A stretch of DNA of 64,000 nucleotides from Pseudofulvimonas gallinarii (GTDB lineage: Bacteria; Pseudomonadota; Gammaproteobacteria; Xanthomonadales; UBA2363), in the NCBI RefSeq assembly GCF_004343305.1, contig NZ_SMAF01000006.1, positions 127,501 through 191,500 on the forward strand, given 5' to 3'. Shown piece after piece: positions 1,446-63,891 of this stretch. The notes beneath the pieces are model-generated. The model had not been told where the DNA came from and made no database searches. It was given only the letters and a program-made list of their open reading frames with translations. Each line of letters opens with the position of its first letter. Position 1 is the first letter of the stretch. The translations under genes and the position numbers were made by a program.

Positions 1446-1448
1446 GCT

Positions 1449-3194: not shown

Positions 3195-3222
3195 GGCGGG
3201 TCTCTCCTCGATGGGTGAATGG

Positions 3223-7315: not shown

Positions 7316-7375
7316 CGCCATTCCTCCATACAGGTCTGTCAACCAGCCGATGCATCCGTTGACACAGGGGTGGAA

Positions 7376-7870: not shown

Positions 7871-8013
7871 GACACGGGCGCCGGCGCGGGCGGCCGCGAT
7901 GCCCGGCGACCATGCAGCATGTCGGCAGGACGGGGAGGGCCCGTTCCGCGTATCCGCTGGCCATCGGCCCGGGAGAAACCGCCTTGGCTGGAAGGCCGTA
8001 CCGGGTACGCCGT

Positions 8014-9155: not shown

Positions 9156-9165
9156 CCGGCGCCGG

Positions 9166-41319: not shown

Positions 41320-41478
41320 TCAAGGCGCCGCGCGGATGGCTCTGCCGTCCGCGCGGTCGCCGCGGTGGTCGCGGTCGCGGCCAGCCGTACCGGGGGCGAG
41401 CCGGTATCATGCCGCCATGAGTCACTCCGATTACAGGACCGGGCCGTTGCGGCCGGTCGCCAGGCGGTCCTGCCGCTG

Positions 41479-42162: not shown

Positions 42163-44085
<1,923 letters not shown>

Positions 44086-45816: not shown

Positions 45817-46224
45817 GGGCAAGGCGTCGGCGACGCCGATCCTGCGCGGCGCCAGTTACCACCCCATCCCTGTGCATCGCGGCCGTGCGCCGGCCATGTC
45901 CTGACCGCCTGCGACGCCTGCGGCGCCCTCCGGTGCGAGCCGCGAAGGCAGCCAGCCTGCGTGCCGGCGTCCGCGGACCAGCGGCTCGGAATGAGCGGAT
46001 GGCGCCGGGTCGCGTTCATCGCTGTACAGGTCGCCGCCCGGGCTGGACCGGCTCGAAAGCGGCGCCCCGTCCGGCCTGCTATCGCCGTCGCCCCTGCGCA
46101 ATCCCTGCCGCCGCCGCCGAAGCATCCGCAGGCGGCCGCATCGGTCCTGCCAAGCGCGTGTCGAACGGTTACGCTTTGCGTCTTCCATCCCGCCGCGGGA
46201 TGCCGGATCACAGCAGGACGCACC

Positions 46225-47464: not shown

Positions 47465-48478
47465 TCAGGCGAGCAGGCGCACCAGCACGTAGCCGCCCAC
47501 GGTCAGCCATGCGAACAGCAGCAGTGCCAGCCACAGCGGGCGGCTGCCGACGGCCCGCAGCGCGGCGAAGCGCGTGTTCATTCCCAGCGCGGCCATCGCG
47601 GTCGCGAGCAGCAGCGTGCACAGCAGCTGCATGGCCTCGCGGAAGGCGACGGACAGCGGCAGCAGTGAATTGATCGCGACCACCGCCGCGAAGGCGACGA
47701 CGAACCACGGGAACGCCGCAGCGCGAGCCTTGCCGGGGTCATCGCGGATGCCCAGCCGGCCGATGACGACCAGCACCGGCACCAGCATGAGCACGCGCAC
47801 CAGTTTCACCACCACGGCGCTGTCGGCGACCTCCGGTCCCAGCGCCTGGCCGATGGCGACGACCTGCGCCACTTCGTGCACGGTGGCGCCGGTGTAGATC
47901 CCGAACTGCCGCGGCGTCAGGTCGAGCAGTGCCGGCAGCAGCGGATACAGCAACAGGCTGGTGGTGCCGAACAGCACCACCGTGCCGACCGCCATCGCCA
48001 CCTTGGCGCTGTCGGCACGCAGGCAGCGCTCGACAGCCAGCACGGCGGCCGCGCCGCAGATGGCGCTGCCCGCCGCGGTCAGCAGCGCGCTGTCGCGATC
48101 CAGTCCCAGCCAGCGCCGACCGAACCACGTGCCCAGGGCCAGGGTGCTGGCCACGATCAGCATCGCGACCAGCAAGGCGCCGCTGCCGATGCCATCGATG
48201 TCGTGCGCATCGAGGCGGAAACCGTAGGCGACGACGCCGGCGCGCAGCAGGTGGCGCTGCGCTGCCGCCAGGCCGGGCGCGGCGGCGGGCAGGCGCGGAC
48301 CGGCGACATTGCCGATCGCCATGCCGATCAGGATGGCCAGCGTCAGCGGAGCCAGATGCAGCGCGGCAAGGGATGGCAGGCCGGCGATCCCCAGCGCGAG
48401 CATCGCCACCGCGGCAGCCAGTGCGAGGCCGGGCAGCAACGCAGGCAGGCGAAACCAGGGCAGGGTGATGGTGGACAT
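47465..48478 (-). CDS. yeiH: YeiH-family putative sulfate exporter / UPF0324 membrane protein
   Basis: Track ORF 47465..49501(-). Start MSTITLPWFRLPALLPGLALAAAV; 337 aa, polytopic. Confidence 0.8.
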   Translation of the reverse strand: MSTITLPWFRLPALLPGLALAAAVAMLALGIAGLPSLAALHLAPLTLAILIGMAIGNVAGPRLPAAAPGLAAAQRHLLRAGVVAYGFRLDAHDIDGIGSGALLVAMLIVASTLALGTWFGRRWLGLDRDSALLTAAGSAICGAAAVLAVERCLRADSAKVAMAVGTVVLFGTTSLLLYPLLPALLDLTPRQFGIYTGATVHEVAQVVAIGQALGPEVADSAVVVKLVRVLMLVPVLVVIGRLGIRDDPGKARAAAFPWFVVAFAAVVAINSLLPLSVAFREAMQLLCTLLLATAMAALGMNTRFAALRAVGSRPLWLALLLFAWLTVGGYVLVRLLA

Positions 48479-48550
48479 GGCCGGGCAGCATGCGCCCGGC
48501 TCGACGATCAGTCCATTTAGAATGTCTTCCCGGTTCGATAAGGATTCCTG

Positions 48551-49480
48551 ATGATCACCGTCAGTCCGCGCCAGCTCCAGGTCTTCGCCGCCACGGCGGC
48601 CACCGGCAGCGTGCGCATCGCCGCGGAGCGCCTGCACCTGACGCAACCGGCGGTCAGCATGGCGCTGGCCGACATGGAGTGCATTCTCGGCCGGCCGGTA
48701 TTCGATCGCGCCTCGCGTCGGCTGGTGTTGAACGAGCACGGTCGTCGCCTGCTGCCGCGGGCGCAGGAGCTGCTTCTGCGGCTGGAGGAGTTCGCGCAGG
48801 GCGCGGACAGCGACGGCGAGCTGGTCGGCGAGCTGCGCATCGGTACCAGCAATACGGTCGGCAATTACCTGGTCGGCGACCTGCTGGGCGGATTCATCGC
48901 CGCGCATCCGAAGGTCAACGTTCGCCTGCAGGTCGAGAACACGTCGACCGTCATCACGCGGCTGCTCGCCTTCGATGTCGATATCGCCTGTGTCGAGGGC
49001 GATGTCGCCCATCCCGATCTGGACCAGCAGTTCTGGCGTGATGACCGCCTGTGCATCTGCGCCGCGCCCACGCATGCGCTGGCACGCCGCAGGCGACTGC
49101 GGCCCGAACACTTCGAAGGCGCACGCTGGGTGTTGCGCGAAAGTGGTTCCGCGACGCGCGTGCAGACCGAGCGCGTGCTGGCGGCGTTGCCGGCCGGCCA
49201 TGTCGTGATGGAGCTGGACCAGGCCGAAGCGATCAAGCAGGCCGTGATCGCCGGGCTCGGGCTGGCACTGCTGCCGCAGGTCGCGGTCGCGCTCGACCAT
49301 GCGGCCGGCCGGCTCCAGGTGCTGCCGACGCCATTCCTGCCATTGAAGCGTGGACTGCGACTGGTCACGCACCGGCGACGCTGGCGAGGCCCGCTGCTCG
49401 ACGCGTTCCTGGCAAACGCTACCGCCGACCGGCGTGCCGCACCTACACTGGCCGCTGGTTCTCCACGAGCGCGCCCATGA
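48551..49480 (+). CDS. yeiE: LysR-family transcriptional regulator (YeiE-like), divergent from yeiH
   Basis: HTH LRIAAERLHLTQPAVSMALADME; LysR substrate-binding domain. Confidence 0.8.
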   Translation: MITVSPRQLQVFAATAATGSVRIAAERLHLTQPAVSMALADMECILGRPVFDRASRRLVLNEHGRRLLPRAQELLLRLEEFAQGADSDGELVGELRIGTSNTVGNYLVGDLLGGFIAAHPKVNVRLQVENTSTVITRLLAFDVDIACVEGDVAHPDLDQQFWRDDRLCICAAPTHALARRRRLRPEHFEGARWVLRESGSATRVQTERVLAALPAGHVVMELDQAEAIKQAVIAGLGLALLPQVAVALDHAAGRLQVLPTPFLPLKRGLRLVTHRRRWRGPLLDAFLANATADRRAAPTLAAGSPRARP

Positions 49481-50832
49481 TGACGGATCCGATCGAGACA
49501 CCGGCGGCCGAGCCCGCAGCGGAAACGAAGCATCGTCGCATTGCCTTCGAGCGCCTGCGCGAGCGCACCGACGAACTGGAGCTGCTGGTCTCCGGCCTTA
49601 CCGTGTTCGCGCTGCTGTCGGCGCCCAGCTATCTGCTCGCGTTGTGGATGCGCAGCCACGTTCATCTCGAAGGTGCACTGCACACCACGCTGGGCTTGGC
49701 CGCGCAGATGGGCATCGGCCTGTGTTACGCGCTGGCCGGCCTGTTCCTGTTGCACATCGTCGTGCGCTCCTACTGGATCGGCCTGGTCGGCCTGAAATCA
49801 GCCTTCCCGACGGGCATCCGTTGGGACAAGGCGAAGAACGTCGGACCCTTCACTCGCGACTTTTACCAGCGACGCCTGCCGGACATGGACAGCGTCATCG
49901 ACCAGGCCGACCGGACAGCGTCGATCGTCTTCGCGACGGCCAATGTGGTCGCCATCGCTGTGGTCTGGATGTCGATACTTATCAGCGCCGTCATCGCGCT
50001 TGCCAGCCTGGCGGTGTCCTATCTCGGCCTCTCCGAGCGCGTCCTCGCCTGGATCGTTATCGCCATACTGATGCCGCCGGTTGTCGCCGCGCTGATCGCC
50101 TGGACCATCGACAACTGGGTAATCCCTCTTCGTCCGGCGCTCGCCAGGCGAGTAGGACTGCGCCGCTGCATGGAACTTCTGCTGCGGGTGAACAACATTC
50201 TGCCCATGCGCCTGATCCTGCCGTTGCAGCTGACAACGCATGGCAGTTCACACACGACGCGCTTTTCGGTGCTGCTCGGCCTGCTGATCTTCCTGGTGCC
50301 ACTGGCAGGCTCGCTGACGGTGGCGGCCGAGGGCCGCTTCTCGCTGCTCGGCAACTACAGCTGGTTCGATGACGACAGCCTCAACGAAGGACTGCGCAGC
50401 GTGCACTACGAGGACATGCGCACGTCGGCCGAGGCCGGCCAGCCGGTGCCCACCATTCCGTCCGACCGCATCGCCGAAGCCTGGTTGCGCCTGTTCCTGC
50501 CGCACATGCCGGCGCGCGACAACGCGCTGCTGGCAAAAACCTGTGCCAGCTCGGGCCAGGGGCAGGCGCCGCGACACGACTGCACCGCGCGCCTCTGGCA
50601 GGTGCGCCTGGGCGACACGCTGGTGGATCCGTCCACGTTCGTCGCCACCGAGCGTCGCGACCTGGGCTGGCGCGGCTTCCAGGCCTACCTGCCGATGCAG
50701 GGCCTGGCGCCCGGTCGCTATGACCTGCACGTGGTCTGGAATCCGGAAGGCGACGACAGCGGCCTGCACCGCCGCCGCGAATACCGCATTCCGTTCTGGC
50801 TTTCGCCGGGCTTCGAACTGTCGGTGCCCTGA
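49477..50832 (+). CDS. membrane protein, hypothetical (451 aa), translationally coupled to the LysR gene
   Basis: Track ORF 49051..50832(+). Start ATGATG overlaps the yeiE stop (ATGA). About 6 TM helices, then a C-terminal soluble domain. Confidence 0.55.
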   Translation: MMTDPIETPAAEPAAETKHRRIAFERLRERTDELELLVSGLTVFALLSAPSYLLALWMRSHVHLEGALHTTLGLAAQMGIGLCYALAGLFLLHIVVRSYWIGLVGLKSAFPTGIRWDKAKNVGPFTRDFYQRRLPDMDSVIDQADRTASIVFATANVVAIAVVWMSILISAVIALASLAVSYLGLSERVLAWIVIAILMPPVVAALIAWTIDNWVIPLRPALARRVGLRRCMELLLRVNNILPMRLILPLQLTTHGSSHTTRFSVLLGLLIFLVPLAGSLTVAAEGRFSLLGNYSWFDDDSLNEGLRSVHYEDMRTSAEAGQPVPTIPSDRIAEAWLRLFLPHMPARDNALLAKTCASSGQGQAPRHDCTARLWQVRLGDTLVDPSTFVATERRDLGWRGFQAYLPMQGLAPGRYDLHVVWNPEGDDSGLHRRREYRIPFWLSPGFELSVP

Positions 50833-50896: not shown

Positions 50897-52873
50897 CTAG
50901 CCGTCCAGCAACGCCGCCATCCGCGCCAGGTGAGCCGCCGCGAGGTCGCGGGCATGCTCGGCATCCCGTTCCGGCTCGCGGCCTTCCCAGTGCAGTTCCT
51001 TCGCCGGCAGTTCGTCCAGGAAGCGGCTGGGCGTGCAGGCTTCCACCGACCCGAAGCGGCGTCGCTTCTCGCTGTAGCTCAGCAGCAGCGTCTGCCTGGC
51101 GCGCGTCAGGCCGACATAGAACAGGCGGCGTTCCTCTTCGACGCGGCCTTCATCGACTGCCGAGGCATGCGGGAACGTGCCGTCTTCCAGGCCGACCAGC
51201 GCGACATGGCGGAATTCCAGGCCCTTCGCCGCGTGCAGGGTCATCAGGCGCACGCCGTCGCGATCGTCGTCGTCGGCATCGCTGAGCAGGCTCACCACCT
51301 GCGTCAGCTCGGCCAGGCCGCTGCGCCGCTGCCGCGCGAAGCCGGCGAGGATGTTCTTCAGCGCGTCGATGTTGCGCTGGCGGCGCTGCCGCTGCTCCGG
51401 CGTCTTGTCGAGCGTGTCCAGGTATTCGCTGTAACCGATGCGGTCGAGCACTTCGGCCAGCAGCTCGTCGGGCGCGGTGCGATTGGCCTGCCGGCGCCAT
51501 TCCGACAGCAGGTGTTCGAACTGCGCCAACGCCGCCGACGGGCGCGCCGGCAGCTGGGCCAGCACGCTGTCCTGGCCTGCGGCCTGCGACAGCGAGAGAT
51601 TGAGTCGCGCCGCCTGTTCGCCCAGGCGTTCCAGCGTGGTCGCACCGATCTCCCGGCGCGGCGTGTTGATGACGCGCAGGAAAGCGCCGTCGTCACTGGG
51701 ATTGGCGATCAGGCGCAGGTAGGCCAGCGCATCCTTGACCTCGGCACAGTCGAACAGCGAATCGCCGCCGGCGATCACATAGGGCGTGCTGGTCAGGCGC
51801 AGCGCCTGTTCCAGCGCGCGTGCCTGGTGGTTGCCGCGGTAGAGCACGGCGCAGTCCGACCAGCGGCACTTGCCGTTCTCCTTGCGCGCGATCAGCTCGC
51901 CGACGACGCGCTCGGCCTCGTGGTCGTTGTCGCGGCAGACCAGCACGCGGATCGGCGGACCTTCCGGCAGGTCGCTCCACAGCGTCTTCGGATGCACGCG
52001 CGGGTTGTGGCCGATCACCGCGTTGGCCGCACGCAGGATGCGCGCGGCGCAGCGGTAGTTCTGTTCGAGCTTGACGATGCGCAGGGCAGGATAGTCCTCG
52101 CCCAGGCGGTTGAGGTTTTCCGGATCGGCGCCGCGCCAGGCATAGATCGACTGGTCGTCGTCGCCGACGGCGGTGAAGGCGCCCCGCTCGCCGGCCAGCG
52201 CCTTGAGCAGGCGGTACTGCGCGCTGTTGGTGTCCTGGTACTCGTCCACCATCAGGTAGCGGTAGCGCGCCTGCCAGCGCGAGCGCAGGCTTTCGTGCTC
52301 TTCCAGCATCGCCACCGGCAGCCGGATCAGGTCGTCGAAGTCCACCGCGTTGAAGGCGGCGAGACGCTTCTGGTAGCTGGCGTACAGTTCCGCCGCCTGG
52401 CGTTCGCGAGCGCCGCCGGCCAGCGCCATCGCCTGTCCGGGGTCGTGGCCCTGGTTCTTCAACTGGCTGATCGTGTTCTTCAGCCAGAACAGGTTGTCCT
52501 TGCTGATCCCGGACGGCGCCAGCTCCTTCAGCAGCTTGAAGCTCTCGTCGGCGTCCAGCACGGAGAAGCCCGGACGCAGGCCGGCGAAGCGTGCCTCGGC
52601 CTGCATCATGCGCAGGCCCAGCGCATGGAAGGTGCAGATCGTCAGCCCTTCGGCCTGGGCGCGCAGGCGCGCGGCCGCGCGCTCGCGCATCTCGCGCGCC
52701 GCCTTGTTGGTGAACGTGATCGCCAGCAGCTGCTCCGGCGCGAATCCGCGCTCGACCAGATAGGCCAGTTTCTCGGTGACCACGCGCGTCTTGCCTGAAC
52801 CGGCGCCGGCCAGGACCAGCAGCGGGCCATCGATGTGCCGCACGGCGGCGTTCTGGGCGGGATTGAGTTGCAC
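50897..52873 (-). CDS. rep: ATP-dependent DNA helicase Rep (UvrD/Rep superfamily 1)
   Basis: LNPAQNAAV...LLVLAGAGSGKTRVVT is SF1 motif I; DEYQDTN; 658 aa is the Rep-like size. Confidence 0.8.
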   Translation of the reverse strand: MQLNPAQNAAVRHIDGPLLVLAGAGSGKTRVVTEKLAYLVERGFAPEQLLAITFTNKAAREMRERAAARLRAQAEGLTICTFHALGLRMMQAEARFAGLRPGFSVLDADESFKLLKELAPSGISKDNLFWLKNTISQLKNQGHDPGQAMALAGGARERQAAELYASYQKRLAAFNAVDFDDLIRLPVAMLEEHESLRSRWQARYRYLMVDEYQDTNSAQYRLLKALAGERGAFTAVGDDDQSIYAWRGADPENLNRLGEDYPALRIVKLEQNYRCAARILRAANAVIGHNPRVHPKTLWSDLPEGPPIRVLVCRDNDHEAERVVGELIARKENGKCRWSDCAVLYRGNHQARALEQALRLTSTPYVIAGGDSLFDCAEVKDALAYLRLIANPSDDGAFLRVINTPRREIGATTLERLGEQAARLNLSLSQAAGQDSVLAQLPARPSAALAQFEHLLSEWRRQANRTAPDELLAEVLDRIGYSEYLDTLDKTPEQRQRRQRNIDALKNILAGFARQRRSGLAELTQVVSLLSDADDDDRDGVRLMTLHAAKGLEFRHVALVGLEDGTFPHASAVDEGRVEEERRLFYVGLTRARQTLLLSYSEKRRRFGSVEACTPSRFLDELPAKELHWEGREPERDAEHARDLAAAHLARMAALLDG

Positions 52874-53014: not shown

Positions 53015-56000
53015 TCACTCCTTCGTGCGCTGGCGGCGGCGGGCGACGCGCTCGGCGATGTCGGCGAGGGCGCGGCGTTCGGCGGACAGGGGTTCATCGC
53101 GGCCGCGTGGCGTGGAACGGGCGGGTGCTTTGCCCTCGCGAGCGGAAGCGCCGGCAGCCGGCCTGGCCGTGTCAGGTTGTCCGGAACCGCTGCGGGTGCC
53201 TGGCGCGCCTCCCGCCTGCGTGGTGCGGGCAGGCGGGGCGACGGCAGGGGCTGCAAGGAGCGATCGCGCTTCAAGGCGCTCGAACAGGCGTTCGGTCATT
53301 TTCGCGGTGATCAGTTGCAGTTCCAGCTGGTCGTCGTCGTTGTCGCGCAACGCTTCGGTGAGCGGCGCCAGCGCCTTCTCCAGCGCCAGCCGCAGGCCGG
53401 CCAGCATGCGCGTGTCGGGACGGGCCGATGGGGACGGCGCCTGCGCCTGCAAGGGCACCGTGCCGCGTTCGCCGAGCAGCCGTTCCAGCTTCGCGAGGAT
53501 GTCCTGCCACGGTACGTCGCGGGTGGCGGCATCCCGGACGCCGCTGTCGAGCCCGCGCACGCCTTCGACGAGGTCGACCAGCTGCGCGACGACGCGGTCG
53601 CCGACTTCGGCATCGTCGCCGCCCATCGCCTTGTTGCGCAGGAAATCGCGCTTGATCTGCGCCCAGCGTGCGGTCTGCTCCGCGTCCAGCGTGCCGCGCA
53701 GTTCGGCGAGCTTGAGCAGGTTTTCCTCGGCGCCGGTGGTCAGCAGCTGTGCTTCGCCGCGATAGTGGTCGGCGATCAGCTGGTCCAGCTCGGCGGCATT
53801 CATCACCGGCGCGATCTTCTCGGCTAGCTTGTTCATGTTGCGGTAGCTGCCCTGCAGCTTGAACGGCGGCTCGGTGCGGTAGCGGTCCGCCTGCGCTGCG
53901 CTGGCGATGTACTGCTGGTTGACGCGATAGACGATCTCGCGCACGGCGAGCATGCGTTCCAGCACGGCGGAAATCTCGTTGATCTCGGCGCCGCTGTAGG
54001 CATGCGACAGGCTGTTGGCCGAGAAGGCGCGGCCTTCGACCTTGTCGACAAAGCGGTAGACGTCGTCCATCGGCCGCGTCGCCAGCGGCGCCAGCACGGC
54101 GTTGGAGGTCAGGCTGTTCTCGATGTAGCTGAGCTTGAACGCGTCTTCCATGCCGCCGAGCACGTCGCCCAGGTTGTAGATGTCGGCGCGGTTGGCGAGC
54201 ATGTCGGGAATCCTGAAGACTTCGCCGGATTCGGTGTACGGGTTGCCGGCCATGACGACGCAGAACTTGCGTCCGCGCAGGTCATAGGTCTTGCTCCGGC
54301 CCTTCCAGACGCCTTCGATGCGGCGGGTACCGTCGCAGAGCGAGATGAACTTCTGCAGGAACTCCGGGTGCGTGTGCTGGATGTCGTCGACATACAGCAT
54401 CACGTTGCTGCCCATCTCCAGCGCCAGGTTGAGTTTCTCCAGCTCCTGCGCCGAGGTGGCGTCCGGTGCCTGCGCCGGGTCCAGCGAGTGCACCTCGTGG
54501 CCCAGTGCCGGGCCGTTGATCTTCATGAACACCAGGCCGAGGCGATGGGCGACGTACTCCATCAGCGTCGTCTTGCCGTAGCCGGGCGGCGAGATCAGCA
54601 TCAGCAGGCCCATCAGGTCGCTGCGCTTGTTCTCGCCGACCGTGCCCATCTGCTTGGCCAGGTTGTCGCCGATGATGCCGAGATAGACGTCGTTGATCAG
54701 CCTGTTGCGCACGAACGAGCTGAGCGGTCGCGGCTTGAACTCGTCCAGGCGCAGGCGCTCGCGTTCGCGCGCGACGATGTCGTGGCGCAGCTGCTGGAAG
54801 CGCTCCCAGCCGGGCAGGAAGCGCGTGCGGTGCGCGTGCAGGCGGGCATCGAAGTCGTCCACGGCCAGCGCCATCGCGCCGTCGTGGATGCGGGCATGGT
54901 CGCCGAGCAGGCCGGTGACATCGACGCGCAGGTCCACCTGGCTGATGCGATGCGCCAGCGACGCGGGCCACAGCTGCAGGGCGACGGCTTCGTCGATGTT
55001 CGGCGCCAGGACGGCATGCGTCGCATCGGCACACAGCGCCAGAAGCCAATGGCGCACCAGCGCGACGGCTTCGCCCGGGCGCTGGCCGGCGTCCTTCAAG
55101 GCCTGTTCGTAGTCGTCGCGGACGTGCGCCTGGTCCAGCCGCGCGTGCAGCGCGTCCAGCAGCTGTCTTGCCGCGGCGGTGAACTGGAATTCCGGATGGT
55201 CGGCGGAGAGCTCGGCGACCAGGTAGGACGCCGCGCGCCCCGGGTCGGCGGCACCCAGCGGCAGCGCATGCGTATCGGAGAACCGCTGCAGTCCGGTGGC
55301 GATCTCGGCCTGCAGTTCTTCCAGCGCCTGCCGCTGTCCGAGCAGGCGCGCGATGTGCCGTGCATTGCGGGCGCGGCGCGGCCACTGCGCAGCGTTGTCG
55401 TCGGCCTGCAGAAGCGGCCAGGCCATGCACGCCAGCGCCCGTGCCGCCGGCTCGTGCACCAGCACGCCGGCCTGGTCGTAGAGCGGCAGCACCGCCTTCA
55501 GGATCAGCGACGCGTCGTGGTCGTGGATACCCTTCTCGTAGCCGTCGCGGTACCGCGCGGCGGCGAAGTCGCGCACCAGCCGCAGCAGCTCCTCCGGCTG
55601 GCTCAGGTTCCGTCTCAGGCCGTCGAGCGACAGGCCTTCGCGTTCGGCGCGTGCGGCGGCGAGCACTTCGCCGGCCAGGTATTCGCCGCGATACAGCGTC
55701 GGCGATTCCGACGCCAGGCCAACCGACCAGTAGTCGCGCAACGCATCCAGCGCCGCATCCTCGATCGGCTCGAAGTAGTCGGTGCCGGTCAGGTGCAGCG
55801 CGAGGTGGTCGCCACGCGGCAGCAGGGTGAGATCCAGCTCCTGCGTGTTGACGCTGAAACGGTGGCGGGGTCCGAGGCGGATGACGTCGCCGCCGCCCTC
55901 GAACAGCTCGCTGCGGTCGCGCAGGGCACGAACGGCCTGGTCGCGCGCGCCCTTGAGGCGTGCCTCGACATCGTCGGCGCGGACGTTGTCCTTGAGCTCG

Positions 56001-58480
56001 CGCAGGCGCACCGCCAGTTCGCGCAGCTTGAGGATCAATGCGTCGCCGGCGAAGAAGGCGTTGAGTTCGTCGCCGTCCTTCAGGCGCGCGGTACGCCGCG
56101 GCAGGCCGTCGATGATGCGCCGGGCGGCATCGAACACCGCGACCGCCTTGCGCTGGCGGTCGTCAAGCAGGGCCTGCTTGTGGGCGTCGAAGGTGTCGAG
56201 CAGTTCTTCGCGCTTGGCGAGGATGTCGGCCAGGAACTGGTCGTGCTCGCCGAACTGGCTTTCCAGCTCTTCCAGCTGCACCAGCAGCCGTGACAGCTGT
56301 TCGTCGCAGCGCTCCGGATCGGTGGCGCTGGCCAGTGCGCCGGCAACGCTCTGCCCGAACAGGGTGAACTGGGCGCCGAACTGCGCGACCGCCTCGCTCG
56401 AACCCATGCTGCGGCGGCGCTGTTCGGCGCGCGCCTTGGTCTGGTTGAGGCGGGCATACAGCGCTGACAGCGCGTCGACCACGCGCGTGCGCTCGGTGGC
56501 GTCCTCGACGCGCAGGCTGGCCATCAACTCGGACAGCATGTCCAGGTCGCCGGCCATGGCGGCCATGGCCTGCAGCGGCGCCGCCAGCTGTGATGTCGTC
56601 GCCGCCGCCTGTGCTTCCCGGTCGAGCGTTTCCAGTCGCGCGTGGAACGGCTGCAATGCGGTGTCGCTGGCCAGGAAAGTGCTGGTCGCGGCGCCGACGC
56701 GTTCGTGCCCGGCGATGATGTCCGCTTCCATAGCGTCGATGGCCGCGGTGTCGATGTAGCGCAGCTCGCGGATGCTGAGCAGGTGGCCGCGCTGGCGGTT
56801 CAGCGCCGACAGCGCATCGACGAATTCCTGCGCTTCGCGCCAGTCCTCGGGCCGCAGGCTGGCCAGCAGTTCCTGCTGGCGCGTCTGCGCCTGCGCCATC
56901 GCACGAGACGACTGCCGACGGATGTCCTCGACCTTTTCGTATTCGTCGAGCACCGCCTCGCTGGTGGCGGCGATGTCGCGGACGACGGCGCCGGTGTCGC
57001 CGCACTCGCGGTCCGCCAGCCAGTGGTGCAGGTCGAACAGCCGCTTGCTGGCCTGCGCCAGTACTTCGTAACGCTGCAGCGAGACGTCGGTGGCCTCGAT
57101 CCCGCGTGCCAGGCTGTACAGGTCGGAGATGCCGCGCACCAGTTCGGCGTTGCCGATGCGCGCCATGAACCCGGTGCCGGCCGGTTGCGCGGCGGCGTAT
57201 TCGTCGCTGTGGAAAGGCGTGCGCCACACCTGCATCGGATGCACGCGTGTCGGCTCGTCGCTCTCGGCGCTGAAGACGACCATGCGGCCGTCGTCCAGGC
57301 GCGCGTAGCCGTGGCCGAAGATCGGTGTCTGCAGCGCGCGCTCGATCAGGTTGTAGGTGAACAGCGCGGTGCGGCCGGACTGCGGCTCGAAGAAGATGTA
57401 CAGCACGTCCTCGCCGTTCGGCGAGCGGATGGCGCGCTTGAAGCGCATGCCGTCCATCGACTGCTCGAAGCGCTTGCTCTCGCCGTTCTGCAGGTAGTAG
57501 CCGCCGGGGAAAACGATGCCGTGGTCTTCCGGCAGCTGGATGCAGGACTGGCCGATGGCGTCGATGCGCTCGACCTTGCGCGTCAGCGTGTTGAAGACCA
57601 GGTGGCGCCACTGCGTCTCGCGGTAGGGCAGTACGCGCAGCAGGATCAGGCTGCCGACGCGGGCGAACTCGATTTCGGCGTCGTCCAGCGACTGCGTCTT
57701 GTCCTCGACCGGTTCGCGATAGACGCCAAGGCCATCCTCGGTGTTGTCCTCCACCTTGATGGTCAGGTCGCCGCCGATGGTCTCGACGAATACGCTGTCG
57801 AGGATGTTGATGTGTGGATGGCGGCCGTTGACGGCCATCTCGCGCGTCGTCGGCGTCCACTCGAAATCGAACGGCGCCGGCAGCGCGATGTCGCGCTCGC
57901 CGCGGTTGTCGATGTAGCGGACTTCGCGGCCATCGACAGAGACCGACCAGCGGAACACGCGCAGGTCGGTGATGCGCTCGCCGATCTGGAACGCCGCCAG
58001 CAGCTTGCCGTCGCGCACCGCCAGCCGCTGCAGGCGCGTGTCCTTGTAGTAGGCGTACAGCTCGCGGAAATCGTTGACGAAGCCGGGCGCGTCGAGGAAA
58101 GTGCCGGCCAGCTCGACCGCCGCCACCTCGTAGCCGTCGTCGTCGCCCGGTACCAGCCGGTACAGCGAGAAAACGTCGCCGACCTGGGTTTCCTTCTTCA
58201 GGCCCAGGAAGACGTTGTAGCCGAACACCATCAGCTCGCCGACCTGGACGATGTCGCGGGCGACGCAGTTGTGTTCGGTACGCACGCGCACGCGCGCCAC
58301 CACCTCCATCGCGCTGCTGCCGAATTCGGCAAGGCGACGGCTGTTCAGTCCATCGGCCAGCGCACGCAGCCGCTGGCCCTGTTCGGCCAGGCGGCGCGCC
58401 AGCACTTCGTAGGCGCCGCCTTCGGCGACGGCGCGGTCAACGGCCGAGGTGTCGGTGCCGGTTTCGGTGGTGTCGGTCAT
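53015..58480 (-). CDS. giant (1821 aa) protein with a single MoxR/dynein-type AAA+ ATPase module, in operon with flotillin and an NfeD-like gene
   Basis: Walker A LISPPGYGKTTL (encoded about 54566-54590), Walker B VMLYVDDIQH (about 54373-54396), sensor-1 CVVMAGNPY, Arg region RIPDMLANRADIY. About 1250 aa N-terminal with no motif I recognise; Ala/Pro/Arg-rich C-terminal tail. Lies 35 bp downstream of the flotillin gene on the same strand. Confidence 0.8.
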   Translation of the reverse strand: MTDTTETGTDTSAVDRAVAEGGAYEVLARRLAEQGQRLRALADGLNSRRLAEFGSSAMEVVARVRVRTEHNCVARDIVQVGELMVFGYNVFLGLKKETQVGDVFSLYRLVPGDDDGYEVAAVELAGTFLDAPGFVNDFRELYAYYKDTRLQRLAVRDGKLLAAFQIGERITDLRVFRWSVSVDGREVRYIDNRGERDIALPAPFDFEWTPTTREMAVNGRHPHINILDSVFVETIGGDLTIKVEDNTEDGLGVYREPVEDKTQSLDDAEIEFARVGSLILLRVLPYRETQWRHLVFNTLTRKVERIDAIGQSCIQLPEDHGIVFPGGYYLQNGESKRFEQSMDGMRFKRAIRSPNGEDVLYIFFEPQSGRTALFTYNLIERALQTPIFGHGYARLDDGRMVVFSAESDEPTRVHPMQVWRTPFHSDEYAAAQPAGTGFMARIGNAELVRGISDLYSLARGIEATDVSLQRYEVLAQASKRLFDLHHWLADRECGDTGAVVRDIAATSEAVLDEYEKVEDIRRQSSRAMAQAQTRQQELLASLRPEDWREAQEFVDALSALNRQRGHLLSIRELRYIDTAAIDAMEADIIAGHERVGAATSTFLASDTALQPFHARLETLDREAQAAATTSQLAAPLQAMAAMAGDLDMLSELMASLRVEDATERTRVVDALSALYARLNQTKARAEQRRRSMGSSEAVAQFGAQFTLFGQSVAGALASATDPERCDEQLSRLLVQLEELESQFGEHDQFLADILAKREELLDTFDAHKQALLDDRQRKAVAVFDAARRIIDGLPRRTARLKDGDELNAFFAGDALILKLRELAVRLRELKDNVRADDVEARLKGARDQAVRALRDRSELFEGGGDVIRLGPRHRFSVNTQELDLTLLPRGDHLALHLTGTDYFEPIEDAALDALRDYWSVGLASESPTLYRGEYLAGEVLAAARAEREGLSLDGLRRNLSQPEELLRLVRDFAAARYRDGYEKGIHDHDASLILKAVLPLYDQAGVLVHEPAARALACMAWPLLQADDNAAQWPRRARNARHIARLLGQRQALEELQAEIATGLQRFSDTHALPLGAADPGRAASYLVAELSADHPEFQFTAAARQLLDALHARLDQAHVRDDYEQALKDAGQRPGEAVALVRHWLLALCADATHAVLAPNIDEAVALQLWPASLAHRISQVDLRVDVTGLLGDHARIHDGAMALAVDDFDARLHAHRTRFLPGWERFQQLRHDIVARERERLRLDEFKPRPLSSFVRNRLINDVYLGIIGDNLAKQMGTVGENKRSDLMGLLMLISPPGYGKTTLMEYVAHRLGLVFMKINGPALGHEVHSLDPAQAPDATSAQELEKLNLALEMGSNVMLYVDDIQHTHPEFLQKFISLCDGTRRIEGVWKGRSKTYDLRGRKFCVVMAGNPYTESGEVFRIPDMLANRADIYNLGDVLGGMEDAFKLSYIENSLTSNAVLAPLATRPMDDVYRFVDKVEGRAFSANSLSHAYSGAEINEISAVLERMLAVREIVYRVNQQYIASAAQADRYRTEPPFKLQGSYRNMNKLAEKIAPVMNAAELDQLIADHYRGEAQLLTTGAEENLLKLAELRGTLDAEQTARWAQIKRDFLRNKAMGGDDAEVGDRVVAQLVDLVEGVRGLDSGVRDAATRDVPWQDILAKLERLLGERGTVPLQAQAPSPSARPDTRMLAGLRLALEKALAPLTEALRDNDDDQLELQLITAKMTERLFERLEARSLLAAPAVAPPARTTQAGGAPGTRSGSGQPDTARPAAGASAREGKAPARSTPRGRDEPLSAERRALADIAERVARRRQRTKE

Positions 58481-58515
58481 GCGCTGCGATGGTCAGGCCA
58501 CAGTCGGGAATCGGC

Positions 58516-60423
58516 TCAGCCAGCCGAGGCCTGGTCGCCGCCGCCCTTCAGCGACAGCAGCTTGGCGAGCAGGTCCTGCACCAGCGGGCTCTTCCCTGCG
58601 ACGCCTTCGATGGCCTTGCCGACCGACAGCGACTTCGCGAACGAATTGAAGAACTCGCCCTCGCCGCCGACGATGTCGATCTTCGCCTTGCTGAGCGCCG
58701 CGGCCAGCACTTCGGCCTGCTCGCGCGCGACTTCCTTGTTCGCGGAGATCGCCGCCATCGCCTGCTCGAAGGACTTCTCCAGCTGCATGCGGAACTCTTC
58801 GTGGCCGCGCGCCTGCTCGCTCATCGCGTCCATGGCGCCGAACTTGTCGGTCAGGCCCTGCGCCTCGGCGCGGAACTTCTCCAGCAGCACCTCGGCCTCG
58901 GACAAGCCGATCTCGCGGCCGGCCTTCGCCTGGGCCGAGCCCAGCTGTTCCTCGCCGCGCGCCTGTGCGACCAGCTTTTCCTCCATGACGCGGGCTTCGG
59001 CCAGGCCTTCCTTCTCCAGCGCCTGGGCGCTGACCTCGCGCACGCGCGCGTCGGCCAGGCCCGGCGCGGCGCGCTCGGCCTCGATGCCTTCGGCCAGCTT
59101 CTTCTTCGCCTCCGCCTGCTTGGCGGCCGCTTCCAGTTCGGCCTGGGCGATGACCGTGATTTCCACCGCCTTGTGCTTGGAGCGGGTCTCGTCGGCTTCG
59201 GCCTGCTTGACCTGCTTGACCAGTTCCTCCTCGGCCGCGGCCTGCGCCTCCAGGATGCGCACTTGCTTCTGGCGGTCGGCCTCGGAAACTTCGCGCACTT
59301 CCTTGATGCGTTCCTCTTCCTGGGCGACGGTCTTCTCGACCGCGACACGCTCGCGCACGACGTTGGCGATCAGCTTGCGCTGCTCTTCCAGCGCCTTCTC
59401 CTTCTCGATCCGCTGCAGTTCGACCTCGCGCTCACGGGCGACCACTTCCAGCTCGCGGGCGCGGGATACCTTCTCCATTTCGATGACGACGGCACGCTGG
59501 CGGTTCTGTTCGGCGACCTCGACTTCGCGCTTGCGGTTTTCCTCGCGGATGTCCAGCTGCTCCTGCGTGGCGATGCGCGCCTGCTCGGCCTTGAGGCGTT
59601 CCTCTTCCTTGACGCGCAGGGTTTCCGCTTCCTCGCGCGCGCGGATGGTGTCGATCTCGCGCTTCTGGCGCGCCTCGGCATCCGCCTGCTGGCGCTCCAG
59701 GGCCAGCATCGCTTCGCGCGTCTCGACGTTCTTCTTCTTGATCGCCAGCTCCTCGTTGCGCTCCAGCTCGTTGGTGATGACGTTCTGGGCCGCGGTCAGC
59801 TCGGTGATCTTGCGGATGCCTTCGGCATCGAGGATGTTGCTCGGATCCAGCGACGATTTCGGCGTCTGCTCGAGGTAGTCGATGGCGACGTCTTCCAGCA
59901 CGTAGCCGTTGAGGTCGTTGCCGATGACCTGGACGATGCGGTCGCGGAATTCCTGGCGGTTCTCGAACAGCTTCACGAAGTCGATCTGCTTGCCGACCGT
60001 CTTCAGCGCCTCGGAGAACTTGGCGTTGAACAGCTCGTTCACCGCCCCCTTGTCGGAGGCGCGATCGACGCCGATCGACTTGGCGACCTTGAGCACGTCC
60101 TCGGCGGTCTCGTTCACGCGCAGGTAGAAGGCGACCGTGATGTCGGCGCGCATGTTGTCGCGGCAGATCAGCCCGTCCTTGCCACGCCGGTCCACCTCCA
60201 GCGTGATCAGGGAGATCTTCATGAACTCCTTCTTGTAGATCACCGGATAGACCAGCGCGCCCGTGAAATGCACCTTGGGCGTGGAGGACATGTCGTTGAC
60301 GATCAGCGCCGTGCCCTGCGGGACCTTGATGTAGAAGGCCTTGAAGAGGGCGAAGAAGCCGATCAGGACCAGCAGCAGGATGCCGATACCGATCAGGAAC
60401 GGCATGAGGGTGGCAAGGCTCAT
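58516..60423 (-). CDS. flotillin-family SPFH/Band-7 protein (YqiK-like), 635 aa
   Basis: N-terminal TM LIGIGILLLVLIGFFALF; SPFH domain; long E/A/R/K-rich coiled-coil (the flotillin EA repeat region). Confidence 0.85.
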   Translation of the reverse strand: MSLATLMPFLIGIGILLLVLIGFFALFKAFYIKVPQGTALIVNDMSSTPKVHFTGALVYPVIYKKEFMKISLITLEVDRRGKDGLICRDNMRADITVAFYLRVNETAEDVLKVAKSIGVDRASDKGAVNELFNAKFSEALKTVGKQIDFVKLFENRQEFRDRIVQVIGNDLNGYVLEDVAIDYLEQTPKSSLDPSNILDAEGIRKITELTAAQNVITNELERNEELAIKKKNVETREAMLALERQQADAEARQKREIDTIRAREEAETLRVKEEERLKAEQARIATQEQLDIREENRKREVEVAEQNRQRAVVIEMEKVSRARELEVVAREREVELQRIEKEKALEEQRKLIANVVRERVAVEKTVAQEEERIKEVREVSEADRQKQVRILEAQAAAEEELVKQVKQAEADETRSKHKAVEITVIAQAELEAAAKQAEAKKKLAEGIEAERAAPGLADARVREVSAQALEKEGLAEARVMEEKLVAQARGEEQLGSAQAKAGREIGLSEAEVLLEKFRAEAQGLTDKFGAMDAMSEQARGHEEFRMQLEKSFEQAMAAISANKEVAREQAEVLAAALSKAKIDIVGGEGEFFNSFAKSLSVGKAIEGVAGKSPLVQDLLAKLLSLKGGGDQASAG

Positions 60424-60450
60424 CGAAGGTTCTCCCAGCAGTTTTTGGGG

Positions 60451-61083
60451 CTATTCGCCCTGGAAATCGGTGTCGAGGGCAACGCGCCATGCATTGTCCG
60501 GCGTGAGGTGTTCGAGCAGCACCACGCGGTCGCCGCGGCGGGGTGTCTCGCCCTCGCAGCGCACCTGTACGATCAGGCTGGCGCCGTTGTCCTCCAGTTC
60601 CGCCTGCCCGTGCGAGGCGGTGACTTCACCGGTGCGCACGATGGCGACGCGACCAAGCAGGCTGCGGTTCGGCGGCGGCGCCAGGCGGCGCTTCAGGCGC
60701 GTCAGTGGCCGCACCACGGCCGCCGTCATCGGCAGCGACAGGAACAGCGCCACCGGCAGCACGATCGCGCCCAGCGTGATGCGCAGCCAGTCCGGCAGGT
60801 GGTTGAGCAGCAGCAGGCCGGTGAAATAGCTCAGCACCCATGCAATGAAGATCAGGATGGTGAAGACCAGCGTGGTCGGAATGCCGCCCAGGCCGAACTT
60901 GACCAGGAAGCCGGCCAGGCCTTCCATGGCGCCGACGTCGCCGTCGATGACGCCGGCCAGCTCCAGCGGGTCGTCGCCGACCAGGCCCAGCGCCGCCAGC
61001 ATCCAGTAGGCGACGGCCACGGCCAGCAGCACGCTGAGGATCGCGGTGGGGAAACTCAGGGCGGTAAGGAGGAATTCCTGCAT
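60451..61083 (-). CDS. YqiJ/NfeD-like membrane protein with C-terminal OB-fold
   Basis: About 4 TM helices, then RVAIVRTGEVTASHGQAELEDNGASLIVQVRCEGE...GDRVVLLE (NfeD-type OB beta-barrel). Lies 27 bp upstream of the flotillin gene. Confidence 0.7.
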   Translation of the reverse strand: MQEFLLTALSFPTAILSVLLAVAVAYWMLAALGLVGDDPLELAGVIDGDVGAMEGLAGFLVKFGLGGIPTTLVFTILIFIAWVLSYFTGLLLLNHLPDWLRITLGAIVLPVALFLSLPMTAAVVRPLTRLKRRLAPPPNRSLLGRVAIVRTGEVTASHGQAELEDNGASLIVQVRCEGETPRRGDRVVLLEHLTPDNAWRVALDTDFQGE

Positions 61084-61477
61084 GGACAGCCTTCTTGTCG
61101 GGTCAGGGGTCCGGCGCGTCCGCGTCCGTCGGCGCAGCGTGCGTCGGCAGGGCGGATCACAGGGATTCCCAGCTTAGCGCAAGCCCGTGCGCCGTTTCCG
61201 GCGGTATCGTGCCAGCTTGGCACCTCTCAAGCGGAAAAAACGCGGCCACCGTGCCACGCCGGATCACGGGCGGATTCACACGCCGCTGCAGATGCCTCGC
61301 AGGCCCGCAAATGAACATATGCCGCCGGGTCCCGCCTGCCGCGTGATGCCCACTTTGCCCCATCCGCCTGCCACGACGCCTGGCACCCGGTCCAGCCAGG
61401 CCTGCCAGCCGCCCGTGCTTCCACAACGACGCGGCATCGTATGATCGTGCCGATGTGGGCGCGGATCAATAACGGCA

Positions 61478-62050
61478 ATGCGAAGCCAGCGGTCGCCATC
61501 GCGGTGGGTGGCGGTACTGCTGCTCGCCGCGCTGGCGAAAGGCGCCGGATGCCGCGCACGCACGGACGCGATGCTGCGTGGCGAACCCGGACTGATCCTG
61601 GCGGACTTTGCCGAAAGCTACGAGCTGCGGGCCGACGAGGGCTTCCGCATGCCCGAACTGATCGAGCCGGCCTCGATGCCGACGCTGGCACTGCCGTCGG
61701 CGCAGCAATCCATGAACGCCGACAATGCCCCGCAGACCTTCGTGTGTGTGGAGCTGGCGATTTCCGAAAACGGCGAAGTCATCGGGCAGGAGTTCTTCGA
61801 CGATGCCCGATACTGTCCCGCTGATCCTTCCGGATTGACCGACGCGCTCCAGCGCGCGGTGCTCGATGCGACCGCCGCGTGGCGCTTCCGCCCCGCTGCC
61901 TTCTGCACCGCCGATGCCATGGACCCGGACATCGATCCCTGCGGCGAGCCCGGCGCGGTCATCGAACCGGTCGGCGTGAAGCTCGCCTTCGTCTTCGCGT
62001 TCGAGGCCGAAGACGGGAATCTCGCCTCGACGGTGGTGCCTCTGGATTGA
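61478..62050 (+). CDS. secreted hypothetical protein (190 aa)
   Basis: First in-frame ATG after a stop. MRSQRSPSRWVAVLLLAALAKGAGC is a signal-like N-terminus. No strong RBS. Confidence 0.4.
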   Translation: MRSQRSPSRWVAVLLLAALAKGAGCRARTDAMLRGEPGLILADFAESYELRADEGFRMPELIEPASMPTLALPSAQQSMNADNAPQTFVCVELAISENGEVIGQEFFDDARYCPADPSGLTDALQRAVLDATAAWRFRPAAFCTADAMDPDIDPCGEPGAVIEPVGVKLAFVFAFEAEDGNLASTVVPLD

Positions 62051-62855
62051 CGCCGCGGCGGTTGGGACTCTGCCACGCATCGCTGTTTTTCCTTGCAGCC
62101 ATCGCGTCCGGCGCAACGAAGGGGCGCGGGCGTGCTTTTCCTTGAAGAGCCGTCGTTGTCTTGCGAGAAAAGCAGGAACGACGGGTTTCAATCGGTCGGT
62201 CGGGCGCGGCAGTGGCCTCTCGGTCGTTGCAGTTATTCTTGCCGCCCCCGGTCTTCCGGAGCGGTGTGTCCAGACGGGCAGCGATCAGCTCAGGTGCCCA
62301 TCACGCCGCGGCAGCACTGCGCCGCTTGATGGGCCACACGCTTCATGGCCACGACGGTTCCGACGGGAAGTTGAGCAAACCAGGCGGCAAAGCCCGCCCA
62401 CCTGACCGAGGGCGGCGCGTTGGGCCGCGAGGCGGCGCTGAACGGTCGTGACCATGTGGGTGGCGCCGGCAGGCAGCGCGGCAACGTCAGTACGGATCTT
62501 GCCTCAGTTTCGCGGGCGCGCCGTAACCGCCGATATCTCCGCGCCGAAGGCAAACCGGATGGGCCGCACACAGTGCATCCCGTCATGTTTCCAGCGCAAC
62601 CTCGGCGAACCTCGTCCAAAAGCCTGGGCTGCGCCTGCGCAGTGAACGACCCTGTTATGGCCGTGTCGTCGCGGTGATAATGCATAACACTGCACCCATG
62701 CCGGATAACACCAGCAACTCGCGGTATGGCAAAGCCGTCCGCGTCGTCAAATGACATTGATTCCCTTGGTGATTTTCTGATTGACGTCACCTGTCGCGGT
62801 CAGCTACAACAGGCGCTACACCCCACTTCGGGGTCGAATAGTAGTTAGGCAGCAA

Positions 62856-63332
62856 ATGAAGATTGCCCCCGTCCTCACAGTCTTTCTCCTGTTCTGTGCG
62901 TCCCTCGGGGATGCGCATGGCCGCGAGGAACGGGACGACACGCTGTGCGCTGAAGTTAAAGCGTTCTTGGCGTCCGTAAAACCTGACGCGACGCGCTCGG
63001 TCACCTTTCGAACGTTCTGGGGCGCCAGGGAAGAAGGAGACAACATCATCCTTGGCTCAAAGACCTGCGAGCACCACGACTACGATCCCGGAGAAAAGCT
63101 GTGTGCCTACCTGATTCAGGATAGTTCCACAGAGTTCGCAGGTTACAACGCCAAGCGCATCCTCAACTGCCTCACGCCAAGGCAGGGGATTGCGGCAGCC
63201 CTGGACATTCATAGCGGATCGTTCTCAATCACCTTTGGCTCGCCCAGCCGAGGCGCGTTAGTAGACCTAGAGCTGGCGCCAGACGAAGGTCGTGAAGAAA
63301 TGAAGCTTATCCTTAAGGCAGATGGCTACTAG
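62856..63332 (+). CDS. small secreted hypothetical protein in a low-GC cassette-like context (158 aa)
   Basis: Signal MKIAPVLTVFLLFCASLGDAHG. Local GC about 50% against about 68% in the rest of the window. ATG lies 6 nt after GTTAGGC (GTTRRRY core-site-like). Confidence 0.5.
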   Translation: MKIAPVLTVFLLFCASLGDAHGREERDDTLCAEVKAFLASVKPDATRSVTFRTFWGAREEGDNIILGSKTCEHHDYDPGEKLCAYLIQDSSTEFAGYNAKRILNCLTPRQGIAAALDIHSGSFSITFGSPSRGALVDLELAPDEGREEMKLILKADGY

Positions 63333-63426: not shown

Positions 63427-63891
63427 ATGCGTAACATCCTCTTCGCACTTGTAGTTGTAGCTACTTCCGCAATGCCGAACACGTCTCAAGCATGTGACTG
63501 GACTACTGGTGCTCGCGAGCAGCACGTCTTTCTGTCCTGGGACGGTAAAGCGGTTACGGACTGGGTCGTTGCTTCTGACTCCATTAAAGCCGTCACTTTG
63601 CCCAACGGATTTGCTCTTGGCGTCAAGATCGAAGAGCCTGAACCGGAGAAGTACGTTGAGCTCTCAAACAAACTGCAGCATGTGCCGGAGACGGTAAAGA
63701 TCAGCTTGTTTGACCTAAGCAATGGCAAGCCCCGACCGTTGACACACACGTATGGTGGCACCAACTCTCTACAAGGCTACGGTGCGCAGGGCGGCGCAGA
63801 CCGGGTTGATGAGTTGGGCACCCCGGGAGTCTTACTCACCTTGCTCAAGCCAGTGTGCTCACAGCAGGGTGCTGTCGCTTCCGCGCGGTGA
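63427..63891 (+). CDS. small secreted hypothetical protein in a low-GC cassette-like context (154 aa)
   Basis: AGGAGAG RBS. Signal MRNILFALVVVATSAMPNTSQA. Low GC. Confidence 0.55.
   Translation: MRNILFALVVVATSAMPNTSQACDWTTGAREQHVFLSWDGKAVTDWVVASDSIKAVTLPNGFALGVKIEEPEPEKYVELSNKLQHVPETVKISLFDLSNGKPRPLTHTYGGTNSLQGYGAQGGADRVDELGTPGVLLTLLKPVCSQQGAVASAR

Follow-up and report, generated by a model that had tools for sequence, protein, structure and literature searches.

A 64,000-nucleotide stretch of the Pseudofulvimonas gallinarii genome (RefSeq assembly GCF_004343305.1, contig NZ_SMAF01000006.1, positions 127,501 to 191,500; hereafter, the window) carries on its minus strand three adjacent genes that encode an NfeD/YqiJ-type membrane protein, a flotillin, and a giant AAA+ ATPase. 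We refer to them, after their Pseudomonas aeruginosa counterparts, as the bacC-like gene (60451-61083; 210 residues), the bacD-like flotillin gene (58516-60423; 635 residues), and the bacE-like gene (53015-58480; 1821 residues). An initial annotation, made from the letters of the window, had described three co-directional genes with the same coordinates and lengths, which agree exactly with the list of open reading frames (ORFs), and its gap sizes are confirmed by the sequence. The bacC/bacD gap (60424-60450) spans 27 bp and contains a Shine-Dalgarno sequence, GGGAGA, 7 nt 5' of the ATG. The bacD/bacE gap (58481-58515) spans 35 bp and contains no hairpin, T-run, or obvious Shine-Dalgarno sequence. 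The GC content at third codon positions (GC3) is 0.89-0.92 in all three genes, as expected of coding DNA in a sequence of 68% GC, and M1, which is invariant in the family alignments, supports the start assigned to the giant gene.

All three products have counterparts in the P. aeruginosa bac operon. The giant protein is 67% identical to PA3728/BacE (PA14_16190) over 95% of its length and 65-83% identical to full-length proteins of Lysobacter, Luteimonas, Stenotrophomonas, and Pseudomonas; the protein cluster to which the P. aeruginosa giant protein belongs has 3222 member sequences. The flotillin shares 77% identity with PA3729/BacD and the 210-residue protein 51% with PA3730/BacC. Relative to bacABCDEF (PA3732-PA3727), the window holds orthologs of C, D, and E whose order and orientation agree with those in P. 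aeruginosa, but lacks bacA (DUF2170/CesT-like), bacB (PspA_IM30), and bacF (PLD/HKD family), and a Rep/UvrD helicase gene follows bacE instead of bacF. By gene content, the P. aeruginosa locus corresponds to PA3732 to PA3724, encoding in order DUF2170, PspA, a 213-residue protein, a 688-residue protein, the giant protein, PLDc_2, YaeQ, RecJ, and an M4 peptidase. We consider it highly probable that the three genes constitute a bacCDE module.

To describe how consistently the three genes are found together, we examined related loci in both directions. A search of representative sequences with residues 1-1200 of the giant protein gave 1391 clusters (50% identity) of relatives, mostly full-length proteins of 1600-1900 residues. 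A genome scan, with one genome per species, gave at least 585 loci, of which we kept the best 80, from Gamma-, Beta-, and Zetaproteobacteria and Myxococcota, as well as single metagenome-assembled genomes (MAGs) labelled Clostridia and Thermoanaerobaculia. Eight of these loci are cut by contig ends; among the 72 counted, which have at least 3.3 kb of upstream sequence, all 72 show the order NfeD-like gene, flotillin gene, giant gene on one strand. In the reverse test, starting from the window flotillin in metagenome contigs, the giant gene lies downstream at 68 of the 69 loci with room for it, and an NfeD-like gene lies upstream at 74 of 74. The 160 sampled loci are the best matches to the window proteins, and their counts mainly describe Proteobacteria and Myxococcota. 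The median gaps in related loci are 36 bp (bacC/bacD) and ≈104 bp (bacD/bacE). Four members of a distant branch (23-35% identity over the first 1200 residues) display the same arrangement of a gene for ≈210 residues, a gene for an SPFH protein of ≈650 residues, and then the giant gene; they include Flavobacterium, the actinomycete Natronoglycomyces, and a Lachnospiraceae MAG, such that Bacteroidota and Actinomycetota are among the phyla represented. At the loci sampled, the linkage of the three genes is near-obligate and crosses phyla. The conserved order likewise strongly supports the suggestion that the three genes form one operon.

For co-transcription in the window itself the evidence is indirect: short gaps of 27 and 35 bp with no terminator-like site, and RT-PCR on the P. 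aeruginosa orthologs. A scan of 50.5-62.5 kb for sigma-70 promoters and intrinsic terminators returned no promoter-like sites and terminator-like sites at chance level, with neither kind in the 27- and 35-bp gaps, and such a scan is uninformative for a genome of 68% GC. A sigma-54 promoter has been proposed for P. aeruginosa bacA, whereas in the window no such site is recognizable above background. A string resembling TGGCACG...GC does occur ≈158 nt 5' of the bacC-like ATG; we make no promoter claim for it, since in a scan for the consensus the regions upstream of 77 operons scored no differently from random intragenic windows. The ≈390 bp (61084-61477) that separate the bacC-like gene from a divergently oriented, putative gene for a lipoprotein (61478-62050, plus strand) contain no convincing gene.

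In P. aeruginosa PA14, the bac genes are co-transcribed and co-regulated: reverse transcription PCR (RT-PCR) spans every junction from bacA to PA14_16200, including that between bacD and PA14_16190, and BacB to BacF rise 6- to 13.5-fold in the proteome of a bacA mutant (PMC10948618). The same study renamed PA14_16190 and PA14_16200 bacE and bacF (PMC10948618). Ravi et al. (2024) described operons of CesT/Tir (YjfI/DUF2170) and PspA with a flotillin, a 3TM YqiJ/YuaF protein, and sometimes a PLD hydrolase, noted a "novel AAA+ ATPase with coiled-coil and beta-propeller" in the same neighborhood, and reported abbreviated operons with only the flotillin, YqiJ/YuaF, and the AAA+ ATPase "in some cases" (PMC11237479). 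The window carries such an abbreviated form of the PspA-associated flotillin operon, published in 2024, and the finding is not novel. The initial annotation had presented the giant gene as a non-canonical and uncharacterized extension of the flotillin pair; that description does not survive, given the published neighborhood (PMC11237479) and the existing names bacC, bacD, and bacE in P. aeruginosa (PMC10948618). The association was thus already on record computationally and by RT-PCR, with the window as a further member. What we add are the two-way linkage counts, the trio in distant phyla, the structural clade assignment, and grounds to doubt the name "DNA repair". For the flotillin subfamily closest to that of the window, the 68 of 69 loci linked to the ATPase quantitatively refine the published "in some cases".

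The neighbors of the trio are more variable than the trio. Upstream, PspA occurs at 33 of 69 related loci and DUF2170 at 32 of 69, and a PLD-family gene occurs downstream at 17 of 73; PspA/DUF2170 are absent at 36 of 69. A tblastn search of the whole 64-kb window found no match to PspA, DUF2170, or PLD, and the ORFs upstream of the module have no Pfam match. As PspA is present at only 33 of 69 loci and is absent here, it cannot be the obligatory substrate, and with over half of the operons lacking it, the flotillin is more likely to be the primary partner.

At a few loci, other genes separate the flotillin gene from the giant gene or from its expected position, and the module is therefore seen to tolerate insertions at this junction. 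At the metagenome locus L146, a Pfam scan of the interval 5758-10452 identified a Zn-ribbon protein, a PhyH dioxygenase, a TauE exporter, AIM24, and an M48 (HtpX-like) peptidase; the membrane protease hints at a theme of membrane quality control. At a second metagenome locus, L155, ORFs at 8888-11040 match the sizes of those in the L146 block, and the contig ends before any giant gene. A Lampropedia locus (L018, 6515-9553) contains an insert with an alpha/beta hydrolase, an NYN-domain protein, and a Pol-beta nucleotidyltransferase, and a zetaproteobacterial MAG (L038, 8036-9936) contains one with two PDDEXK_2 transposase-like genes. We considered a hidden conserved fourth component at the junction and rejected it, because the inserts of L018, L038, and L146/L155 are mutually unrelated.

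We next turn to the individual proteins. The bacD-like product features an N-terminal membrane anchor (hydrophobic residues 7-29), an SPFH/Band_7 domain, a coiled coil rich in E, A, R, and K, and a C-terminal region. A Pfam scan of the full-length 635-residue protein matches no family, while a scan of residues 1-200 alone detects Band_7 at residues 33-181 (E = 7e-8; 33.1 bits, cutoff 23.6). The coiled coil appears to suppress the full-length match, and automated annotation could overlook the SPFH protein at 58516-60423. The flotillin is also 28% identical to Escherichia coli YqiK (E = 5e-38). Across related loci that span classes, the SPFH part of BacD-like proteins retains 60-95% identity, and in this respect BacD differs from E. 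coli yqiJK in constituting a far more closely conserved subfamily.

The bacC-like product contains three hydrophobic segments followed by a C-terminal soluble domain of the NfeD/YqiJ type. Searched alone, the 210-residue protein has no Pfam or NCBIfam match and no BLASTP match to E. coli YqiJ. A profile built from 77 BacC-like orthologs does match E. coli YqiJ with 31.8 bits, and hhalign assigns the pair a probability of 93.9% over 139 columns, which places the protein as a remote YqiJ/NfeD-type relative below the curated family thresholds (YqiJ DUF1449/short-NfeD). Of the YqiJ/NfeD-flotillin pair originally proposed, the flotillin is thus secure through Band_7 and YqiK homology, whereas the NfeD-like partner is reached by the ortholog profile only. 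The pair has in common with E. coli yqiJK and Bacillus subtilis yuaF-floT, homology being measured against E. coli, that a gene for a small multi-pass protein of the NfeD type lies directly 5' of a gene for a flotillin with a transmembrane segment, SPFH domain, and coiled coil. Downstream of E. coli yqiJK there is no giant ATPase gene; sibD/ibsD lie there instead.

The bacE-like product has the Pfam architecture DUF3686, DUF7902, AAA_5. The N-terminal part (57023-58369, minus strand; residues 38-486) matches DUF3686 with E = 1.8e-207, and Pfam, AlphaFold2 (AF2), and Foldseek together describe it as a helix with a beta-rich, propeller-like domain. It is followed by a long helical and coiled-coil region (55901-56995, minus strand; residues 496-860) that includes DUF7902 (residues 608-691; E = 3.9e-25), and then by a small beta domain (residues 866-906) and a helical domain (residues 930-1170), both within 54971-55885 on the minus strand. 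The AF2 model of residues 1-1200 has a mean predicted local distance difference test (pLDDT) score of 81 and comprises a helix (22-53), a beta-rich domain of ≈30 strands (59-420; pLDDT mostly 85-93), long helices over ≈430 residues (426-860), the small beta domain, and the helical domain (pLDDT ≈85-95). Family alignments show Y981, G984, H986, D989, and R1014 to be invariant within residues 866-1170. Foldseek searches with the model return generic beta-propellers (prolyl oligopeptidase, Ski8, Vps18, and the LRRK2 WD40 domain) with low template modeling (TM) scores, and the model suggests that the N terminus adopts a beta-propeller-like fold followed by a long helical region, in line with the beta-propeller, coiled coil, and AAA+ domain published by Ravi et al. 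(PMC11237479) and no more specific than that description. Matches to dynein, nucleoporin, and clathrin were also returned at very low TM scores, and we did not treat them as evidence of a coat-protein relationship. The initial annotation took the AAA+ domain for the sole recognizable element of the giant protein, which is incorrect.

The C-terminal part begins with the AAA+ alpha/beta core (54131-54628, minus strand; residues 1285-1450), continues with a helical lid and a post-AAA region that carries an invariant EPPFKLQGSYRNM motif (53621-54130, minus strand; residues 1451-1620), and ends in a tail rich in Ala, Arg, Leu, and Pro with a predicted terminal helix (53018-53620, minus strand; residues 1621-1821), the tail being delimited by composition and AF2. 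In the AF2 model of residues 1151-1821 (mean pLDDT 76.5), the AAA+ core is followed by a conserved helical region to residue ≈1620 and a disordered tail. Columns 1521-1589 are invariant or near-invariant, and pLDDT exceeds 90 over most of residues 1451-1620, whereas most of the tail has a pLDDT of 34-60 and no family-wide alignment. The Ala/Pro/Arg-rich tail noted at the outset is thus poorly conserved and predicted to be largely disordered. The protein has no transmembrane segment, protease domain, or MIT domain by sequence inspection and Pfam scan.

The P. gallinarii copy deposited at NCBI has 1722 residues and is 100% identical to the window translation over residues 1-1579, after which it is out of frame (53015-53743 of the window). 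The deposited protein probably carries a frameshift, whether from faulty assembly or from a difference between strains, because the window frame retains the family-conserved LTTGAEENLLKL beyond residue 1579. Ankyrin repeats appear in distant parts of the family: one member (P0283, 1876 residues) has them fused, and the locus of another (L083) has ankyrin-repeat genes upstream (1-3978). These repeats could be alternative partner-binding modules.

The NCBI name of the giant protein is "DNA repair ATPase", and Pfam describes DUF3686 as an "ATPase involved in DNA repair". Read at face value, these names suggest that BacE is a DNA-repair ATPase that adjoins the flotillin pair without a functional link and works with the UvrD/Rep-type helicase encoded 141 bp 3' of bacE on the same strand; the occurrence of recJ a few genes downstream in P. 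aeruginosa and weak matches of the giant protein to the RuvB P-loop point in the same direction. The helicase neighbor, however, is unique to the window, occurring at none of the 80 genome loci, and we rejected it as a fourth operon member on that ground. The protein itself contains a single internal AAA+ domain, with no match to ABC or SMC families and no DNA-related domain, the structural relatives of its AAA+ domain are protein remodelers, and we found no literature support for a role in repair. The name probably stems from the long coiled coil, which resembles those of SMC/SbcC proteins, as a weak match to the SMC-like LmuB over residues 545-867 suggests (E = 0.024; PADLOC). We regard the annotation as unsupported and misleading, and a role in repair, a reading based only on the database name, as exceedingly improbable. 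The possibility raised at the outset, that the giant protein is a repair ATPase adjacent by chance, is in accord with that name and has neither an experimental nor a domain basis.

Giant nucleoside triphosphatases (NTPases) with repeat domains are common in defense systems, and the initial annotation had entertained a defensive role. The trio could accordingly be an anti-phage system in which a membrane scaffold and a giant NTPase sense infection and trigger abortive infection. In P. aeruginosa, infection by two virulent phages induces a set of 17 genes that includes PA3728-PA3732 (PMC12041424), and at a few loci toxin-antitoxin-like or transposase genes are inserted inside the module. Induction by phage would be equally expected of an envelope stress response of the phage-shock type, however, and the core trio lacks an effector domain. 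PADLOC returned nothing significant (best E = 0.0067, to IetA over 29 P-loop residues, then 0.024 and 0.062). Homologs are absent from 50,697 phage records and occur in only 13 of 72,556 plasmid records, most of which are megaplasmids or records the size of a chromosome. The surroundings are housekeeping genes in the window (rlmE-ftsH-folP, PrpF, a LysR regulator, and Rep/UvrD), and the P. aeruginosa cluster sits between thrC and recJ/lasB. Moreover, the 67% identity between Pseudomonas and Lysobacterales proteins over ≈1800 residues is unlike that of fast-evolving defense genes. Taken together, these observations leave the defense idea unsupported and, in our estimation, very improbable. The antagonism-defense clusters designated "Arc" in eLife were also considered as an identity for the module and set aside, since the loci are not the same ones and PA3729 figures in that work only as a background protein.

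Examination of the AAA+ domain places the quoted motifs where they had been reported: SPPGYGKTT at residues 1297-1305, LYVDDIQH at 1362-1369, MAGNPY at 1410-1415, and RIPDMLANR at 1423-1431. Within them lie the Walker A sequence GYGKT (1300-1304), the Walker B residues DD (1365-1366), the sensor-1 residue N1413, and R1431 as the candidate arginine finger. Two alignments, of 22 and 46 homologs and extending down to ≈23-30% identity, show nearly all of the motif residues to be invariant, including G1300, K1303, T1304, D1365, D1366, N1413, and R1431. The closest relatives of the domain are the MoxR remodelers CbbQ and NorQ, along with midasin and dynein, which together with the AAA_5 match upholds the MoxR/dynein clade first proposed. 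The AF2 model includes a beta-hairpin that precedes sensor 1 (residues ≈1387-1400; model residues 237-250). At the helix-2 position, it has a conserved loop (model residues 177-190) and no clear helix-2 (H2) insert, as read from the model without inspection of coordinates. Searches of the three proteins against PADLOC, NCBIfam, and PDB sequences gave matches at the P-loop level only. The sequence conservation indicates a MoxR-type domain that is apparently catalytic. Compared with the MoxR family (CbbQ, NorQ, and RavA) and the modules of midasin and dynein, the BacE domain differs in being embedded in an 1821-residue protein that also contains a propeller and a helical arm, in having DD at Walker B, in the absence of a VWA partner, and in the H2 insert, which is not evident in the model.

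These features lead us to a working model for the module. As expected from other SPFH proteins, the membrane-anchored BacD would assemble into a large oligomeric scaffold that lines the inner membrane on its cytoplasmic side, and BacC would be its three-helix membrane partner of the YqiJ/NfeD type. BacE would be soluble and would combine a beta-propeller, a long helical arm, and one AAA+ domain of the MoxR/midasin type; because it has only a single AAA+ domain, it is presumably a ring of several subunits. Docked on the flotillin scaffold through its propeller or helical arm, BacE might, under envelope stress, spend ATP to assemble, disassemble, or reshape that scaffold; alternatively, its target might be client polymers that the scaffold recruits, PspA for example. 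We lean toward the full explanation, in which the window holds the P. gallinarii copy of bacCDE and BacE acts as a remodeler of the scaffold or of client polymers under envelope stress, as the reasonably probable one. The remodeling mechanism taken for itself we judge to be evenly balanced.

Two known pairings of a membrane scaffold or polymer with an AAA+ ATPase, HflK/C with FtsH and ESCRT-III with Vps4, follow an analogous logic, although this is functional speculation: the homology of BacE to FtsH and Vps4 is limited to the AAA+ fold, and matches to the classical clade score lower. SPFH cages such as HflK/C hold AAA+ machines, in that case FtsH, that act on other membrane proteins, and the MoxR ATPases CbbQ and NorQ remodel specific client enzymes, Rubisco and nitric oxide reductase, respectively. 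Both precedents, as well as the position of CbbQ and NorQ as the closest solved relatives of BacE, fit a different assignment of the substrate, in which the flotillin platform recruits BacE to serve, as a chaperone of the MoxR type, in the maturation, insertion, or extraction of another membrane complex. On this account, the predicted beta-propeller could serve as a client-binding module, and chaperone-like assembly of membrane complexes is what Ravi et al. proposed for the neighborhood (PMC11237479). Against it, no conserved candidate client stands beside the trio, the recurrent neighbors being only PspA/DUF2170 and the PLD family, and no VWA adaptor occurs in the neighborhoods with domain calls. 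The chaperone and the remodeler differ in the identity of the substrate only, and we treat the former as a serious alternative, if on the unlikely side.

Several observations weigh against scaffold remodeling by BacE. PspA, the client polymer named above, is absent from the window operon and lies upstream at fewer than half of the related loci. The linkage counts mainly describe Proteobacteria and Myxococcota, and the distant loci inspected number four. The Walker B sequence DD (54383-54388), in place of the usual DE, is invariant family-wide and may indicate slow, regulated, or switch-like hydrolysis. A VWA-domain partner, usual for MoxR proteins, is not among the called neighbors in the five annotated loci and the window neighbors scanned. 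The biofilm, rhamnolipid, and virulence phenotypes of the operon come from mutants of bacA and bacB, not of bacE (PMC2587700, PMC10948618). Finally, whereas the gene identities, the linkage, the co-transcription and co-regulation of the P. aeruginosa orthologs, and the AAA+ clade are shown, we infer from established knowledge of SPFH proteins and AAA+ ATPases the contact of BacE with BacD, BacC, or PspA, its oligomerization, its ATPase activity, and the nature of what is remodeled.

For the task of building and dismantling bacterial flotillins and PspA-type polymers, BacE is the obvious candidate because a giant AAA+ ATPase is almost always encoded beside one flotillin subfamily in several phyla. 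PspA is a relative of ESCRT-III, and bacteria have no Vps4 homolog (PMC7619361). By extension, BacE might be the missing bacterial ATP-driven remodeler of membrane scaffolds, comparable to Vps4 or to FtsH with HflK/C, which would disassemble or reshape flotillin cages and, where present, PspA/ESCRT-III-like polymers, with the propeller and arm as a coat-like adaptor; we offer this analogy tentatively and consider it doubtful. If it is true, flotillins would have an energy-consuming partner of their own, and no SPFH protein of the BacD class is known to have one. In P. aeruginosa, the operon has been connected with biofilm formation, with virulence, and with how the cell responds to phages. An earlier paper on the bac genes implicated PA3731 in biofilm, swarming, rhamnolipids, and virulence (PMC2587700), the proteins PA3728-PA3732 increase jointly in another proteome study (PMC13637947), PA14_16190 is among the genes that RsmA affects most strongly (PMC8855297), and cystic fibrosis isolates carry recurrent mutations in PA3728 (PMC8190622). 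We found no study of BacE activity in the literature.

The neighborhood of the module consists of housekeeping genes. On the downstream side lie rlmE/ftsJ (41365-42108), ftsH (42163-44085), folP (44319-45236), and PrpF (45961-47421), followed by a minus-strand ORF (47465-49501) whose C-terminal part encodes a YeiH-like membrane protein. This ORF is over-extended and overlaps a LysR regulator gene on the opposite strand (48551-49480). The Rep/UvrD helicase gene occupies 50897-52873 on the minus strand. On the other side of the module, the segment 62001-64000 has a GC content of 0.587, compared with ≈0.68 elsewhere in the window, and may be horizontally acquired DNA; two ORFs within it (62781-63332 and 63427-63891) encode signal-peptide-like N termini and have no Pfam match. 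Farther away, the plus strand carries at 33902-35899 a gene for a 665-residue Hanks-type Ser/Thr protein kinase that is unrelated to the bacCDE module.

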